Assembly: GCA_963737655.1 (NCBI GenBank)
Contig: CAVTTN010000002.1
Location: 1,984,001-2,048,000, forward strand
Origin: an uncultured Planctomycetota bacterium
Lineage (GTDB): Bacteria > Planctomycetota > Planctomycetia > Isosphaerales > Isosphaeraceae
DNA: 64,000 nt
Direction of reading: 5' to 3'
The number at the start of each line of letters is the position of its first letter. Positions within the stretch are counted from its first letter, which is position 1. Positions 1-7,327 of this stretch are shown in pieces. A program made the position numbers and the translations under genes. The notes beneath the pieces are model-generated. The model had not been told where the DNA came from, did no database searches, and was given only the letters and a program-made list of their open reading frames with translations.

Positions 1-180
1 GATTACGAGTTCGAGGATCTGTGGGGGATCGCCCAAGTCATCTACGAAGAGACGACGGGTAGCGAGATGCCAACGGTCGATTTTGCTTGGCCTGCCGAGC
101 CGAAGGGGGATCGCTGGGATTTCGACGACGACGAACAAGTCACACGCAAGCTCCCCAAACTGGCCGAGCTTTACGCCTGA
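1..180 (+). CDS. 3' end of a cassette gene, DUF4240-like protein (partial)
   Basis: Frame 1 is open from base 1: DYEFEDLWGIAQVIYEETTG...EPKGDRWDFDDDEQVTRKLPKLAELYA*. The 'P.G..WDFDD....LP.LA' tail resembles DUF4240 C-termini. The stop TGA lies inside the R'' box of attC1. Confidence 0.65.
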   Translation, partial: DYEFEDLWGIAQVIYEETTGSEMPTVDFAWPAEPKGDRWDFDDDEQVTRKLPKLAELYA

Positions 181-274
181 CCTCGCGCTGCAGCGGACCC
201 CGCACCGCCTCGGTGCTCCCCGTGCTATCATGGATTCCTGGGCGGTGCAGGTCCGCTGAGCTCTATCGTTAGGC
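175..274 (+). repeat. attC site 1 (100 bp)
   Basis: R'' GCCTGAC, 5 nt, L'' GCTGCAGC ... L' GCTGAGC, 6 nt, R' GTTAGGC. Extra G in L''; stem GGACCCCGCACCGCC / GGCGGTGCAGGTCC. Confidence 0.9.
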
Positions 275-289
275 GGCTTGGAGACACCG

Positions 290-853
290 ATGGAGGAATC
301 GGACCTCGCCGCGATTGCGCACCGGCTCGCTCGCCCGAGCGTCCTGCTCAAGCGCGACGCCGCCGTGGGTGCTCTCGCCGGCGTGTGGGGCGGCGCAGGC
401 GTTGTGCCCGCCCCGGCCGGGCCTTTCCGGCACTGGCTCAGCATCGACTGCCGCTTCCTCCCTGCCGGGCTCGGGCCGCCTGGCGGCGTCCTGAGCGTCT
501 ACACCAACGAACAGGACTGCGTGTCCGGTTACGTGGGCCACGACCCGGCGGCGAGCCTCGCGGTCGGCGAGGGGCATCCTCTTTATGCACAGCCCAGGTC
601 CTCGCTTCCACCGCCGGAGGCCCTGTCCGCAGAGGACGATGCGACGTACATTCACCTCTGGCAATCCAACTGTCCTCTGTATGCGAGTGAGGCGACGGCG
701 GTGCTCGGCGGCTGGCATTTCCCCTGGCCCGACGGCGATTGGGAGGAGTTGCGTGAGCATCGCCTTCTGGTCTGGACGATCGAGGACTCGGAGCCGTGGG
801 TCGAGGTGTGGGCCGAACCCTTCGGGTTCCGCGTTCTGCAGCGGATCACGTAA
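290..853 (+). CDS. Cassette 1: hypothetical protein (weak resemblance to YwqG/DUF1963-like proteins)
   Basis: ATG at 290 after GGAG; ORF fills the attC1-attC2 interval; Trp-rich C-terminus GGWHFPWPDGDWEEL...EPWVEVW. Confidence 0.75.
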   Translation: MEESDLAAIAHRLARPSVLLKRDAAVGALAGVWGGAGVVPAPAGPFRHWLSIDCRFLPAGLGPPGGVLSVYTNEQDCVSGYVGHDPAASLAVGEGHPLYAQPRSSLPPPEALSAEDDATYIHLWQSNCPLYASEATAVLGGWHFPWPDGDWEELREHRLLVWTIEDSEPWVEVWAEPFGFRVLQRIT

Positions 854-857
854 CGCC

Positions 858-915
858 GCCTAACCGGGCGCTGCAGCGGACCCCGCACCGCCGCATCTGA
901 TCTTTGGCGTTAGGC
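858..915 (+). repeat. attC site 2 (58 bp, internally deleted)
   Basis: Perfect R'' GCCTAAC, L'' GCTGCAGC and R' GTTAGGC. The loop and most of the right arm are missing (CCGCC-GCAT-CTGATC). Confidence 0.85.
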
Positions 916-929
916 GGCTTGGAGGCGAC

Positions 930-1286
930 GTGTCCGAAGGCGCACTCTTCAAGCCCGGTCAACTCGACTTCGTCCACTCGATCCGAGACCTGCTCGGCGA
1001 GGTCCGTGAGCGACCAGCCATGTGGCTCGGTGAGAAGTCGCTGACCGGGCTCAAGTGCCTCCTGTTCGGCGACGAGATCGCTTGTGGCAAGCATGGCATC
1101 ACCGAGCCGGATCAACTGCCGGATGACGTCCCCTGGCGGGGTTTCCGCGAGTGGCTTGCGGGGCGTTATGATAGAGTCGGCTGGAGCGTCGATTGGTACT
1201 GGTTGCTCATCGAACATTCGTCCTCGCAGGAGGAGGCGTTCGATCGCTTCTTCGAGCTGCTCGCGGAATACGAGGCCGCCGTCTAA
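930..1286 (+). CDS. Cassette 2: small helical hypothetical protein (RPAMWLG...FREWL...AFDRFFELL family)
   Basis: GTG start after GGAGG; stop TAA lies inside the R'' box of attC3. Confidence 0.8.
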   Translation: MSEGALFKPGQLDFVHSIRDLLGEVRERPAMWLGEKSLTGLKCLLFGDEIACGKHGITEPDQLPDDVPWRGFREWLAGRYDRVGWSVDWYWLLIEHSSSQEEAFDRFFELLAEYEAAV

Positions 1287-1380
1287 CCTCGTGCTGCAGA
1301 GGACCCCGCACCGCCGCGGCGGTTTACGCGTTATCCTCGTACTCTCGGCGGTGTGGGTCCGCTGAGCTTTGGCGTTCGGC
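1281..1380 (+). repeat. attC site 3 (100 bp)
   Basis: GTCTAAC, 5 nt, GCTGCAGA GGACCCCGCACCGCC ... GGCGGTGTGGGTCC GCTGAGC, 6 nt, GTTCGGC. Confidence 0.9.
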
Positions 1381-1395
1381 GGCGGAGAATCAACC

Positions 1396-1803
1396 ATGAT
1401 CCGACGGCCAGACCTCCGCCCCAGGGTCCGCCATCTCCTGATCGGCGTGGCCGTCGCAGCAGTCGGCCTCTTCGTATTCCGGGACACCTGGGATGGTGGC
1501 GAGGAGGTCATCGTTCGCCAAGATCCGGAGGATCGGCGACCGTGGAATCGCGGCGATGCGATCCGAGTCCGGCTGGATGGCGACCGTTTGCGCGCGTACG
1601 GCCTCTCCAAAGCAGACGTGGTGGAAGCGCTGACACCGAGCACCATTCTCGGTTCCCAGAAGCGAGTCGATCCGCCCGCGGGGGTCGTGTACTTCAGGCG
1701 CCTCCCACGAGCCGACCAGCTCGAAAACTGCGTCTTGAAGGCCGATGCCGAGGGGGAGATCGTCCGGCTCAAGGATGTTGCGAGGGTCGAAGTCGGTCGG
1801 TGA
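1396..1803 (+). CDS. Cassette 3: membrane-anchored stand-alone AcrB/RND docking (DN) subdomain protein
   Basis: N-terminal TM helix, then AIRVRLDGDRLRAYGLSKADVVEAL and LENCVLK...GEIVRLKDVARVEVG, matching RND permease DN-subdomain motifs. Confidence 0.7.
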   Translation: MIRRPDLRPRVRHLLIGVAVAAVGLFVFRDTWDGGEEVIVRQDPEDRRPWNRGDAIRVRLDGDRLRAYGLSKADVVEALTPSTILGSQKRVDPPAGVVYFRRLPRADQLENCVLKADAEGEIVRLKDVARVEVGR

Positions 1804-1924
1804 AGGCTCGGCATCGCCCATCGATTCTCGACGGGATGGGGAGGGGGTCGAGTGGCTCGGCTCGGGCGGGCCGTCCGTCAGAGAGGGTGGTCACCGCCGC
1901 CGGAAGCGTGCCGGCCGGTCTGCC

Positions 1925-2024
1925 GCGTAACCTCGCTCCGCCGCGGGTTCCGCGGCGCCGCGGCGCTTGTGGTAGCATCACCGATGTCTCGGCGGTGCGG
2001 ATCCGCTGAGCTTGATCGTTTGGC
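1925..2024 (+). repeat. attC site 4 (100 bp, degenerate left arm)
   Basis: GCGTAAC CTCGC ... GGCGGTGCGGATCCGCTGAGC, 6 nt, GTTTGGC. Confidence 0.8.
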
Positions 2025-2065
2025 GGCGGAGATCCGACCGGGCTTTACAGGAAGGAGTTCCAGGT

Positions 2066-2506
2066 ATGCGATCGCGTTCCGTCTGGCTATGCGGCTCGAT
2101 CGTCGTGGCCCTGGCTTGCGCGGGGTTGAGGGCTGACGTTCCGCCCCTCGGCGTCGATGAGTTGAAACAGCAGGCGACTCACGTCGTCGTCGGGAAGCTC
2201 ACGACGGTGTATCGCTCGGCAAAAACCGGCGACGACTTCGTGAGGACGAGCGGCATCGCCGAGATCGTTGTCGAGAAGGTCGAGAAAGGCGGCGGGCCAA
2301 AGGTTGGTGAGGTCACGTTCGTCCGGTTCTGGAACCAGCACTGGGTTGGTAAGGGAATGGTTCCCCCGCACAGCCCCGGCCATCACGTCCCGGCGGAGGG
2401 CGCGGTCGTCCGCGCCTACCTGAAGCGAGGCCAGGATGGCAGCTACGAGGCCCTGTTGCCGAATGGATTGGCGGTCGTGGCCGAGCCCGCGATCCGGCCT
2501 CGATGA
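2066..2506 (+). CDS. Cassette 4: secreted hypothetical protein
   Basis: ATG at 2066 after GAAGGAG; signal peptide ...ALACAGLRA-D; beta-rich ATHVVVGK motif. Confidence 0.75.
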   Translation: MRSRSVWLCGSIVVALACAGLRADVPPLGVDELKQQATHVVVGKLTTVYRSAKTGDDFVRTSGIAEIVVEKVEKGGGPKVGEVTFVRFWNQHWVGKGMVPPHSPGHHVPAEGAVVRAYLKRGQDGSYEALLPNGLAVVAEPAIRPR

Positions 2507-2527
2507 GCGTACGGCTCCGGAAGCTGC

Positions 2528-2626
2528 GCCCAACCTCGCTCTGCGGCGGACCCGGCCACGCGGGCGCGGTATGATCGTGCGGGGCGTACCGGAATGGGGC
2601 CGGTCCGCGGAGCTTGGTCGTGAGGC
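2528..2626 (+). repeat. attC site 5 (99 bp, degenerate; R' GTG instead of GTT)
   Basis: GCCCAAC CTCGC TCTGCGGCGGACCCGGCC ... GGCCGGTCCGCGGAGC, 6 nt, GTGAGGC. Confidence 0.75.
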
Positions 2627-2644
2627 GGCGGAGTCAAAGACGCT

Positions 2645-3088
2645 ATGTCTGTCGAGATCGAGCCGGTGCTGCTCTCGGGCGATGACGACGCCATCTTCGA
2701 GTTCGCGTCGGACCCCGACAATTGCCTCGTCACCGACCATCGGGAGGACGAGGGCGACCTGATCGGCTACGTCATCGACGCGATCCCCGAGGCCGGGTTG
2801 GCCTTCTCGGAGGACGACTCGGGCGATGACCTGATCCTCTCCTGCCGAGGCCGCTCCACGCCGGTCGGCCTGACGATGACCCCCCGGGACCGCTACATCA
2901 CCATCCGCGCCCTCAACCGCCTCCTGGCGGGCGACTATGAGATGCGGCTGTTCCGGGTCACGCGCCAGGCGGACACGCACTCCTTCTATCTCAAGCCCGC
3001 CCGATGGTGGAGCGAAGCGGAGAGGGACCATCCCGAGGAGGTGGACCGAGTCTTCCTGGTGGTCGACGAGGCGCTGGACTTCCCGTGA
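2645..3088 (+). CDS. Cassette 5: acidic hypothetical protein
   Basis: 147-aa ORF filling the attC5-attC6 interval; stop ends 1 nt before R''. Confidence 0.75.
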   Translation: MSVEIEPVLLSGDDDAIFEFASDPDNCLVTDHREDEGDLIGYVIDAIPEAGLAFSEDDSGDDLILSCRGRSTPVGLTMTPRDRYITIRALNRLLAGDYEMRLFRVTRQADTHSFYLKPARWWSEAERDHPEEVDRVFLVVDEALDFP

Positions 3089-3089
3089 C

Positions 3090-3191
3090 GCCGAACCTGG
3101 CGCCGCGGCGGACCCCGCGCCGCCGCGGAGCTTTCTCCTTCGAGTCGACGGATCCTCGGCGGTGCGGGTCCGCCGAGCTGATGCGTCAGGC
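3090..3191 (+). repeat. attC site 6 (102 bp, terminal; R' GTC instead of GTT)
   Basis: GCCGAAC CTGGC GCCGCGGCGGACCCCGCGCCGCC ... GGCGGTGCGGGTCCGCCGAGC, 6 nt, GTCAGGC. Confidence 0.8.
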
Positions 3192-3234
3192 GGCTACCCC
3201 CTTGCGTGAGGAAAAGGGGTCAGGAGTGCTCTGG

Positions 3235-3360
3235 AGAAAACCCCGGTGATAGCGTAGAAACGAGTAGGTCCGACTTCAGTCGGGCCTACAGAATAAGACG
3301 TTTTTGTAGGCCCGACTGAAGTCGGACCTACTCGTTTCCTCATTCTCAATGGGGTTTTCT
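3235..3360. repeat. REP doublet / MITE-like element (GTAG family)
   Basis: Perfect 34-bp inverted repeat at 3257-3290 / 3305-3338, each arm containing the palindrome GTAGGTCCGACTTCAGTCGGGCCTAC; outer inverted repeat AGAAAACCCC / GGGGTTTTCT. Confidence 0.85.
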
Positions 3361-3498
3361 ATGGAGCAGGGCCGGGGCCGATTTTGACCGGGGCGGGTGG
3401 CTGAACGACCGCCTCACCGTGAACGCGGGAAAGGGGCCAGGAGCCGATTTCGAGCAATACCCAGTGGTCGGGTCGAGAATCGGGCGATCCGGTTGGTT

Positions 3499-4413
3499 TC
3501 AGCCTGAGGGCGGGGTGGCGATCTCGTAGAGGTCGGACCCTTCGTTGCGGTCGGAGAGGAAGAGGAGTTTTCGGCCGTCGGGCGACCAGGTGGGGAAGGT
3601 GTCTCGGCCGGGATGCCTGGTGAGGTTCGTGGGGTTGGAGCCGTCGGCGGCCATCAGGTAGACCTCGAACTGGCCGTCTCGATTGGAGACGAAGGCGATT
3701 TGGCGGCCGTCGGGGGAGATCGCGGGGTAGTCGTCCAGTCCGGGGCTCCTGGTCAGGCGGGCGAGGTGGGTGCCGTCGGGGTGGATGGTGGCGATCTCCA
3801 GGCCGCCCCAGCGGTCGGTGGCGAAGGCGATGATCGTGCCGTCGGGCGACCAGCAGGGGTGGGCGTCGATCCCGGGGCTCTGCGAGAGCCGGACGAGGTC
3901 CGATCCGTCGGATTTGGCCGTGTAGATTTCTTGATTGCCGTCGTGGGTCGAGCTGAAGGCGAACCGCCGGCCGTCGGGCGACCAGCTCGGCCAATCCTGA
4001 TGCGAGAGGCCGCCCGAGCCGTCGCCCACGACCTTCTTGAGCCCCGAGCCGTCGAGGTTCACCATCGCCAGGTCGAGGTTCCCCTGGGTCCCCGAGAGCT
4101 CGACCACGGCCAGGAGCATGCGCTTGCCGTCGGGCGAGAACGCGCCGTTGAACTCCGGGGCCTTGCGGTCGGTCACTCGGCGGAGCGAATTCGGGTCGGT
4201 CCGGTCCATCGCGTACTGGAAGATCGCCATCCCGCCCGATTCGTGACGGGCGAACGTCACGAGCTTGCCGTCGGGCGAGAACGCGGGCCTCTGCTTGTCC
4301 TTGCCGTCGGTCGTGAGCCTTCGGGGGAGGGGAGGATCAACCGCCAAGACGCCAGGTTCGCCAAGAGTAAAAGAGAAAAGAACGAAGAATTTCACATATT
4401 TGAAGAATTTCAC
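3499..4413 (-). CDS. TolB-like PD40 beta-propeller protein
   Basis: Repeated P.(W/F)SPDG motifs; probable GTG start at 4413 or 4395 giving a signal peptide. Confidence 0.9.
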   Translation of the reverse strand: MKFFKYVKFFVLFSFTLGEPGVLAVDPPLPRRLTTDGKDKQRPAFSPDGKLVTFARHESGGMAIFQYAMDRTDPNSLRRVTDRKAPEFNGAFSPDGKRMLLAVVELSGTQGNLDLAMVNLDGSGLKKVVGDGSGGLSHQDWPSWSPDGRRFAFSSTHDGNQEIYTAKSDGSDLVRLSQSPGIDAHPCWSPDGTIIAFATDRWGGLEIATIHPDGTHLARLTRSPGLDDYPAISPDGRQIAFVSNRDGQFEVYLMAADGSNPTNLTRHPGRDTFPTWSPDGRKLLFLSDRNEGSDLYEIATPPSG

Positions 4414-4491
4414 AATTTCACCCTCACTGAATTTCTCTTCCTCTTCTTCTTTCTCTTCCTCTTCCTTGGCGGACCTGGCGTCTTGGCGGTT
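4339..4491. repeat. MITE-like element with 27-bp terminal inverted repeats and an AT-rich core
   Basis: AACCGCCAAGACGCCAGGTTCGCCAAG (4339-4365) / CTTGGCGGACCTGGCGTCTTGGCGGTT (4465-4491), one mismatch; internal direct repeat GAAGAATTTCACA. Confidence 0.8.
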
Positions 4492-4504
4492 GGTCCCCCC
4501 CGAT

Positions 4505-6013: not shown

Positions 6014-7327
6014 ATGAGGCCCCGGCTCGAGAGTCCCCCCGAAGTGAACGGACCCACCGAAGACGACGGCGCCGGGCGGCTGAAACGTCGGGCCTGGCTC
6101 GGCCTGGCGGCCTCGACCGTCCTGGCCGGGCGGGCCTGGGCCGAGGAGGGGCCGTCGGCCGAGGCGGACGAGATCCGGGAGGAGCGGGCCGTCCTGGAAA
6201 CGGCGACCAAGGCGGGGCTGGACCGTCTTTCGTGGTCGTCGTCCCCCCATTATGCCTGCCTCGGGAATGTCCGGGTCGAGGACCGCAAGAGGGCCCTGCG
6301 GTGGGCGGAGGCGCTGAGGGCCGGTTTCCTGTCGGAATGGCCCAGGCTGGGTTTCCCGGCCCGGCCCGATCCGAAAAGGCTCCTGATCCTCCTCACCAAG
6401 GATCGGCCGGGCTTCGTGGCCGCCGCTCGGGCCTTCGCCGACCACACCCCGTTCGAAGGGGTCAGCGGAATTTATTCTATCGAATTTCATCTTAATATTT
6501 GCAGTCACGTGATCGATTCGCATTCGGGGCGGACCGATGTCGAATTCATGTTCCGGACGGCTTGCCACGAAGGGATGCATCAACTTTGCTTCCATTGCGG
6601 AGTGTTCCGGCGGGGGGCCGACGTGCCTCGCTGGCTGGCCGAGGGGCTGGCGACCCTGGCCGAGTCGTGGGACGCCTGGGGGCGGCCTTCGCTCCTGGAA
6701 CGCAACGGTCCCGCAGTCGCCCCGGCCCTGGAACTGGCCCGGACCCGCAAGGGCTGGGTCGAACTCCCGGAGCTCCTGCTCGATGGGACCTGGAAGGAGG
6801 AAAATGACGAGGACTACCAAGCCAGATATGGCCAGAGCTGGCTCCTGGTCCATTACCTCGTGACCGAGCCGGCGATGGGGCGGAGGTTCCGCGCCTACCT
6901 CGCGACCATCGCCGGACGGGACGATTCCTCCCGGCAACTGCAGGACGCGCAGGCCCATTTCGGCGACCTCGGCCGCCTGGAACGGTCCCTGATCGAGCAC
7001 GCGAGCCTCGCTTCAGATCAATCCATCCAGGTATCCGCGATCGATCCGGCGAAAATGAGGTCGTCCTCGCTCTGGGCTGGGTGGCATGCTTACGTCTTCG
7101 TAAGCATGTCTTCGGACAGGTTCGCACCGAAGACATGCTTACGAAGACGTAAGCATGCCACCCAGCCGGGCCCGGACGAGTCCGGCCCTTCGGATCGGCT
7201 CGTGAGGGGGTTCGGGTCCGGTTTTCGACCTCGGAGGCGCGTCAGGGTCTTCCCGACCGTCGGAGTCGCCAGGTCCGCCCCGGCTTCTCGGACCGGGACA
7301 CCCTCGCGGTGGCCGATCGTGGTTTAG
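6014..7327 (+). CDS. DUF1570 domain (zincin-like) protein; 3' end uncertain
   Basis: RR signal, HEGMHQL, VPRWLAEGLATLAE, YGQSWLLVHYL. The ORF reads through a REP, so the true end may be near 7058. Confidence 0.8.
   Translation: MRPRLESPPEVNGPTEDDGAGRLKRRAWLGLAASTVLAGRAWAEEGPSAEADEIREERAVLETATKAGLDRLSWSSSPHYACLGNVRVEDRKRALRWAEALRAGFLSEWPRLGFPARPDPKRLLILLTKDRPGFVAAARAFADHTPFEGVSGIYSIEFHLNICSHVIDSHSGRTDVEFMFRTACHEGMHQLCFHCGVFRRGADVPRWLAEGLATLAESWDAWGRPSLLERNGPAVAPALELARTRKGWVELPELLLDGTWKEENDEDYQARYGQSWLLVHYLVTEPAMGRRFRAYLATIAGRDDSSRQLQDAQAHFGDLGRLERSLIEHASLASDQSIQVSAIDPAKMRSSSLWAGWHAYVFVSMSSDRFAPKTCLRRRKHATQPGPDESGPSDRLVRGFGSGFRPRRRVRVFPTVGVARSAPASRTGTPSRWPIVV
7075..7167. repeat. REP doublet (GTGG family), copy 1
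   Basis: Perfect 41-bp inverted repeat 7075-7115 / 7127-7167 with internal hairpin CATGCTTAC-GTCTTC-GTAAGCATG. Confidence 0.9.

Follow-up and report, generated by a model that had tools for sequence, protein, structure and literature searches.

The window analysed here is the whole 64,000-nt stretch at positions 1984001–2048000 of contig C2 (CAVTTN010000002.1) in the genome of an uncultured Planctomycetota bacterium of the family Isosphaeraceae (this genome is called G000). Its left end carries six attC sites, the recombination sites of integron gene cassettes, with short genes between them. The features are listed in window coordinates.

1..180, plus strand: cassette gene 18 (DUF4240), 3′ end only; the remainder of this gene and of the array lies to the left beyond the window
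175..274, plus strand: attC 18 of 23, 100 bp; GAC replaces AAC in R″
290..853, plus strand: cassette gene, 187 aa; no Pfam/NCBIfam match
858..915, plus strand: attC 19, a 58-bp remnant; right stem arm missing, 36 bits in the covariance model
930..1286, plus strand: cassette gene, 118 aa; no Pfam/NCBIfam family match
1281..1380, plus strand: attC 20, 100 bp; AAC and GTT both unaltered
1396..1803, plus strand: cassette gene, 135 aa; hydrophobic N-terminus and an 80-aa AcrB/RND subdomain fragment
1925..2024, plus strand: attC 21, 100 bp; L″ box degraded
2066..2506, plus strand: cassette gene, 146 aa; the start resembles a signal peptide by eye; no family match
2528..2626, plus strand: attC 22, 99 bp; GTG replaces GTT in R′
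2645..3088, plus strand: cassette gene, 147 aa; no Pfam/NCBIfam family match
3090..3191, plus strand: attC 23, 102 bp, final site of the array; GTC replaces GTT in R′
3227..3368, no strand: inverted repeat with 67-nt arms at the array boundary, outside the array; a minus-strand PD40 beta-propeller gene comes next

A preliminary description of the window had reported six repeats at 175, 858, 1281, 1925, 2528 and 3090, all in the same orientation and each with one short plus-strand open reading frame (ORF) before it. These positions were right, as were the box consensus and the spacers of 5 and 6 nt, which hold at all six sites. The two unpaired (extrahelical) bases are also present, as a bottom-strand G in the stem and a C in the L″ box (the site at 858 has no stem). 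The ends of the cassette at 268–864 (268–277 and 855–864) are perfect 10-nt complements, as described. A palindrome of ~100 bp was found at five sites (99–102 bp), but 858 is a deletion remnant. The sites had also been called near-identical, which does not hold: within the direct-repeat families D1 and D2 they are only 67–82% identical to the first copy. The triplets AAC and GTT are both intact at 858, 1281 and 1925, and one of them is changed at 175, 2528 and 3090. The cargo is mostly uncharacterised, as had been proposed: of the five cassette genes that are complete in the window, none belongs in full to any Pfam or NCBIfam family.

The six sites scored 36–108 bits in a bottom-strand covariance model whose training included five of them (858 was left out), and the best other match in the 64 kb reached 17.5 bits. 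The model also matched untrained sites in relatives, with up to 114 bits. Across the 19 aligned sites on which the model was built, from this array and the array next to the integrase gene (see below), bottom-strand pairing was found in 86% of cells, compared with 34–45% for slid partners. Two-sided changes numbered 26 in these sites and 10.1 in shuffles (0/500). Folded as single sequences, the six sites gave z = −3.6, −2.5, −1.7, −1.8, −0.4 and −3.5, so three of them are weak when taken alone. An Rfam search of the two arrays gave no match. A profile search of the genome returned 91 attC-like matches (E<1e-4), most of them in co-oriented clusters and few solitary; this number is a lower bound, since more divergent sites are visible by eye.

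The attC type is lineage-specific, in agreement with the preliminary description: the strict pattern occurred in 12 of 24 genomes of the same family and in none of 16 genomes belonging to other families in the class. Extrahelical bases of attC sites are usually T and G, and the bottom-strand G and C found here differ from this. In most attC, G occupies the second extrahelical position (PMC3053210). A Planctomycetes attC model is among 11 taxon models (Ghaly et al. 2021, PMC8352920), and homogeneous, lineage-restricted attC are a feature shared with sedentary chromosomal integrons (PMC8352920, PMC12444791).

The window sites are attC 18–23 of a 23-attC array (plus one truncated stub) at C2:1969895–1987202. 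The array spans ~17.5 kb and starts 14.3 kb to the left of the window. The window sites terminate the run, and the description of the locus as the tail of a chromosomal array was supported. They are also the most decayed of the 23. The preliminary description had pointed to the DNA left of the window for an integrase gene (intI) and an attI. The attI is there (C2:1969662, ~−14,340), but no intI is. This attI is 93% identical over 163 nt to the attI next to the only intI of the genome, and the first cassette is joined to it at G^TT. On its upstream side it is preceded by a non-coding leader of 0.86 kb and, beyond that, by an RND permease gene. The leader is 73–81% identical to two sister leaders. 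Neither tblastn nor a DNA profile built from the 5′ end of intI picked up any trace of intI beside this attI. With 23 attC and no intI or intI pseudogene nearby, the array is by definition an attC cluster that has no integron integrase (CALIN). An attI stands at its head as in a complete integron, but no intI adjoins the attI or the array.

The sole match above the cut-off to the integron integrase (IntI) family in G000 is encoded at C2:6777126–6778082 (TIGR02249, 475 bits; cut-off 265). It aligns over its full length to IntI4 (PDB 2a3v, E 1e-93), and the R-K-H-R-H-Y residues are intact by eye. The remaining tblastn matches to it in the genome are two partial tyrosine-recombinase matches. Its gene is 4.81 Mb away from the array, or 2.80 Mb if the contig is circular, and faces a 19-attC array across an attI. 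A sequence search found seven full attI modules (165–195 bp, measured from intI to G^TT), with 84–97% identity to the module at intI; partial copies exist as well. The full modules are at C2:283815, 1121477, 1672907, 1969662, 5876326 (65-bp deletion), 5884902 and 6778276. Every one of them ends in GTT with cassette-type sequence directly after. An attI is recognised solely by its cognate integrase (PMC2095811).

The leader is C-rich and non-coding. It occurs at C2:1968763–1969431 and in six more strong copies, seven in total, and in >30 weak copies genome-wide. The strong copies at 1950125 and 4893716 head no array. The same leader lies upstream of an intI 5′ stub (C2:6863298–6863424, E 8e-11) and of a different attI at 6.86 Mb. 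A further small array runs from C2:4536600 (minus strand) to 4534959; its head is attI-like but different, and its attC sites belong to a divergent subtype, part of which the profile missed.

Cassettes were compared among the 77 that were mapped. A 332-bp cassette without an ORF occurred in 10 copies in four arrays at >=99% identity and is the first cassette both in this array and in the intI array. Cassette 3 of this array is 99.8% identical to cassette 11 in the array at intI, and the attC in front of the two differ. The cassette that stands first at the attI at 1672907 is 100% identical to one that comes after an attC in the intI array, namely cassette 9. The joins of the shared cassettes fall exactly on G^TT. 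Five of the 23 cassettes of the array have a 99–100% twin elsewhere, and one has a 90% twin. Core-box deviations numbered 0 in sites 1–8 and 1–4 in sites 16–23, rising with the distance from attI (rho 0.75, n=23), and hence the window holds the oldest end of the array. The attI module has diverged by 7% and the leaders by 19–27%, while the cassettes differ by <=1%; the loading of cassettes therefore looks younger than the platform that received them.

The 332-bp cassette (locus L002:5162–5493 and nine more copies) is of low complexity, GC-rich, often in tandem and near attI. Early positions are also taken by several further short cassettes that lack an ORF and have a similar composition. In relatives, the 332-bp cassette gave short weak matches only (9 of 40 genomes).

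In integron biochemistry, IntI recognises attC through its folded bottom strand, releases cassettes in circular form and joins them to any cognate attI at G^TT. We consider the window repeats to be the decayed far end of an attI-headed array without intI that was loaded in trans by the single IntI 4.8 Mb away (probability about 0.75). The loading by the distant IntI is likely because cassettes that are 99–100% identical are shared at G^TT and because decay rises away from attI; that IntI would act in trans is inferred from established integron biochemistry. IntI would excise cassettes elsewhere as circles and insert them at G^TT of the satellite attI. New cassettes would accumulate at the attI end, and old ones, such as those in the window, would be displaced outward and erode. 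As a second layer, an IS110 element with a predicted bridge-RNA guide and its 380-bp derivative enter R″ and would travel with the cassette.

The genome contains 28 ORF-less mini-elements of identical length (~380 bp; minis hereafter) and eight copies of the IS110 insertion sequence (IS), six of them intact with a 450-aa recombinase. Both are inserted at one base of R″, in the orientation opposite to the cassettes, and the insertion point is defined by an empty/filled allele pair. In this array, seven minis and one IS110 occupy eight junctions, none of them inside the window. The recombinase is of the DEDD type (NF033542, 253 bits with a cut-off of 140; PF01548; PF02371) and is preceded by ~270 nt of non-coding DNA. 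This region holds a segment identical to the attC bottom strand beside the insertion point. A second segment matches the element's own end, and the mini and the IS differ there by two compensatory bases. Folding single sequences of the bridge region gave no resolved guide loops.

The guides were checked in IS110 relatives, which include many Planctomycetota records (20 distinct guides with sufficient flank, parsed from 79 fetched loci). The target guide matched the left flank at 6/6 positions in 11 of the 20 guides (shuffled: mean 0.11, maximum 2). The donor guide matched the element end in all 29 parsed loci, a result that is partly circular because both patterns demanded purine runs; right-hand guides were not located. 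Among 87 parsable attC of G000, 35 of 55 with the guide-matching hexamer were filled and 0 of 32 without it, where the first four bases were part of the search pattern and only the last two were freely tested. The six window sites are free of insertions, likely because the hexamer is missing from four and the flank is changed at two. A filled attC is predicted to be still recombinable because the insertion spares AAC and the L boxes. For mobilisation of the mini in trans through a circular form, the signs are indirect: the fixed length, the 28 copies and the empty/filled allele pair. The mini was also found at attC in one genome of the same genus (83%).

The IS1111-attC group (ISKpn4, ISPst6, ISPa25; PMC11187229) likewise combines a DEDD recombinase, a single fixed insertion point at one end of attC and a target-matching guide. 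IS1111 recombinases have 330–350 aa and a downstream non-coding region, whereas the element here has 450 aa and an upstream region, i.e. the IS110 type (PMC11187229). Its use of attC is likely an independent retargeting. The mini resembles the miniature inverted-repeat transposable element (MITE) of ISPpu9, MITEPpu9/ssr9, which is also an ORF-less, RNA-encoding hitch-hiker of an IS110 recombinase (PMC12288879). MITEPpu9/ssr9 targets repetitive extragenic palindromic (REP) sequences, whereas the mini targets attC and has 28 copies compared with six intact IS. Unlike in MITEPpu9/ssr9, the predicted donor guide of the mini fits its own end and not the IS end (PMC12288879). MITEPpu9 was the sole precedent for an ORF-less IS110 derivative in the literature searched, in which subscription journals were largely uncovered. 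At locus L023, a close IS110 relative (84%) has a second left-end-like sequence directly downstream of the recombinase, as ISPpu9 does with its MITE.

A hairpin element of ~90 bp lies directly after R′ of attI or attC. It has four copies in G000 (C2:1121469, 4298504 and 689551 on the minus strand; 4847053 on the plus strand, partial) and occurs at three loci of the relative G003 (L114, L117 and L119; in tandem in L119). It is possibly a third parasite, aimed at R′.

IntI scored above the cut-off in 15 of 41 genomes, G000 included. With the intI-adjacent DNA of four relatives as queries, attI copies were found in G003 (5), G013 (8), G012 (8 and 5), G015 (2) and G023 (5); the others in the same searches had 0 or 1. 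From these matches, a subset of 25 distinct attI loci was fetched, comprising six primary intI loci and 19 non-primary ones. A broken intI or an intI remnant accompanied 11 of the 19 non-primary copies, and eight had none (one of these at a contig edge). In the stretches fetched, attC matches came after 11 of these 19 copies. In G023, three stub-bearing attI copies share 1.3–2.2 kb at 93–98% identity, so the truncated platforms have themselves been duplicated. The duplicated unit (L140, L141 and L142) includes a divergent ORF with a homolog beside an attI copy of G012 (L143) and none in G000. The attC type of G023 is short (55–58 bp).

Several points weigh against loading in trans. The genome is 87.7% complete, and a second intI could therefore be unassembled. 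No match to the sigma-70 consensus was found over the attI region, which is conserved among the attI copies; the cassette promoter (Pc) is thus assumed from position. The attI type of G000 was not found in 40 relatives, and the sharing of cassettes between arrays was shown for G000 alone. Among the 77 mapped cassettes, the five complete ones of the window had no copy. The p value of the decay gradient (4e-5) is overstated, as one cassette accounts for three of the first six attC and the sites are not independent. Two pairs of identical attC carry unrelated cargo, with a mini involved in both, and point to exchange through homologous recombination or composite transposition. Cassettes could also be moved by homologous recombination between minis, attC sites or attI cores of identical sequence.

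One alternative we regard as unlikely. The array would be a dead CALIN that owes its likeness to other arrays not to IntI but to gene conversion of the RecA type acting on identical repeats (380-bp minis, 332-bp cassettes, attC and the attI core), or else to composite transposition driven by the IS110 recombinase. A block of mini, attC, cassette and mini is common to C2:1678862–1680140 and 1976598–1977876; the cargo upstream and the attC downstream differ between the two, and IntI would have taken the downstream attC along. The attI modules are also more alike (93%) than the leaders (73–81%). Yet two shared cassettes begin exactly at G^TT behind non-homologous neighbours (attI and attC, or two different attC), and the polar decay runs across mostly unique cassettes, as expected from serial loading at attI. 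Conversion and composite transposition probably work beside IntI rather than replacing it. It is less probable still that the array was a complete integron until recently, with its own intI deleted after the last cassettes arrived or with a second intI in unassembled DNA. Every stage of intI loss is seen among the relatives, the completeness of 87.7% leaves room for a second gene, and loss of the integrase is a proposed origin of CALINs (PMC4889954). Against this, neither tblastn nor the DNA profile detected intI at this attI, and in three copies without intI the leaders are 19–27% diverged and the cassettes <=1%, so that the loss looks older than the loading. Intergenic palindromes of the REP type or of the bacterial interspersed mosaic element (BIME) type, unconnected with integrons, have next to no probability. 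Other palindromic repeats are abundant in the genome and some attC-like matches are solitary, but most of the 91 matches are in co-oriented clusters and a 19-site cluster adjoins intI and attI. The sites further show bottom-strand asymmetry and spacers of fixed length, and cassettes have complementary ends.

As to its origin, we infer that the platform descends from an integron copy that lost intI and kept the promoter–attI module. Movement of the platform as a cassette or a transposon was considered and is unsupported: the left edge of the leader has no sharp end, inverted repeat or GTT. The attC and attI motifs had no match in viral contigs, metagenome contigs or plasmids, and thus no vehicle for the spread of the platform was found. 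GC skew was too flat for orienting the arrays relative to replication. A wider proposal is tentative, and we give it rather less than even odds: one integrase may run a chromosome-wide network of at least seven attI docking stations that spread as platforms without intI. Many CALINs would then be live acceptors, and minis with guide RNAs would add a swap route for cassettes and attC that is independent of IntI.

Taken alone, the six repeats belong to a known kind and are ordinary for it. Publications already cover planctomycete attC families, CALINs, IS that target attC and MITEs of IS110. The reading in the preliminary description was correct but incomplete, as it overlooked the retained attI, the sister arrays in the genome and the colonisation by IS110. 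CALINs as defined by Cury et al. 2016 (PMC4889954) share with this array at least two attC, no nearby intI and mostly unknown cargo. Half of them are in genomes with an IntI, and their cassettes may be excised and reinserted at the attI of the integron (PMC4889954). PMC12444791 and PMC9668308 likewise mention mobilisation out of CALINs in trans. Unlike the usual CALIN (PMC4889954), the array here keeps a cognate attI and appears to gain cassettes. Sedentary chromosomal integrons (PMC8352920, PMC12444791) differ as well: here, one IntI is found with seven attI modules and with arrays sharing 99–100% identical cassettes. Decay of intI and additional CALINs are described in Xanthomonas (PMC12444791), and extra attI pieces are known within mobile arrays (PMC12901181). 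In the literature covered, with the limit on subscription journals given above, no account was found of one integrase that feeds several dispersed arrays with an attI at the head.

CALINs are more numerous than complete integrons (PMC9668308) and are usually viewed as remnants or donors. If true, a CALIN that keeps attI and is loaded in trans would give a genome several promoter-proximal slots. IntegronFinder cannot seek attI outside classes 1–3, so such sites go uncounted, and for most integrons a search for attI is not possible (PMC4889954). Standard tools overlook attI-headed CALINs because an unknown attI cannot be searched. With seven natural attI variants and one IntI, a direct test is possible in which the bases needed by attI are mapped. 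The occupancy pattern of IS110 is a natural read-out of the target rules of bridge RNA.

Some minor observations concern the window itself. The product of the gene at 1396–1803 is 41% identical to the RND permease encoded directly upstream of the array, and this cassette could be born from a gene piece; a search of the ESM Atlas with this AcrB-fragment gene gave no result. The sole plasmid match of the DUF1501 gene in the window is from Singulisphaera (36%), which fits a planctomycete source, as do the Planctomycetota records among the IS110 relatives. The sequences at 3227–3368, 4329–4501 and 7075–7167 are long inverted repeats of the REP/MITE type, and a sequence resembling the repeat at 7075–7167 precedes the attI module of this array.

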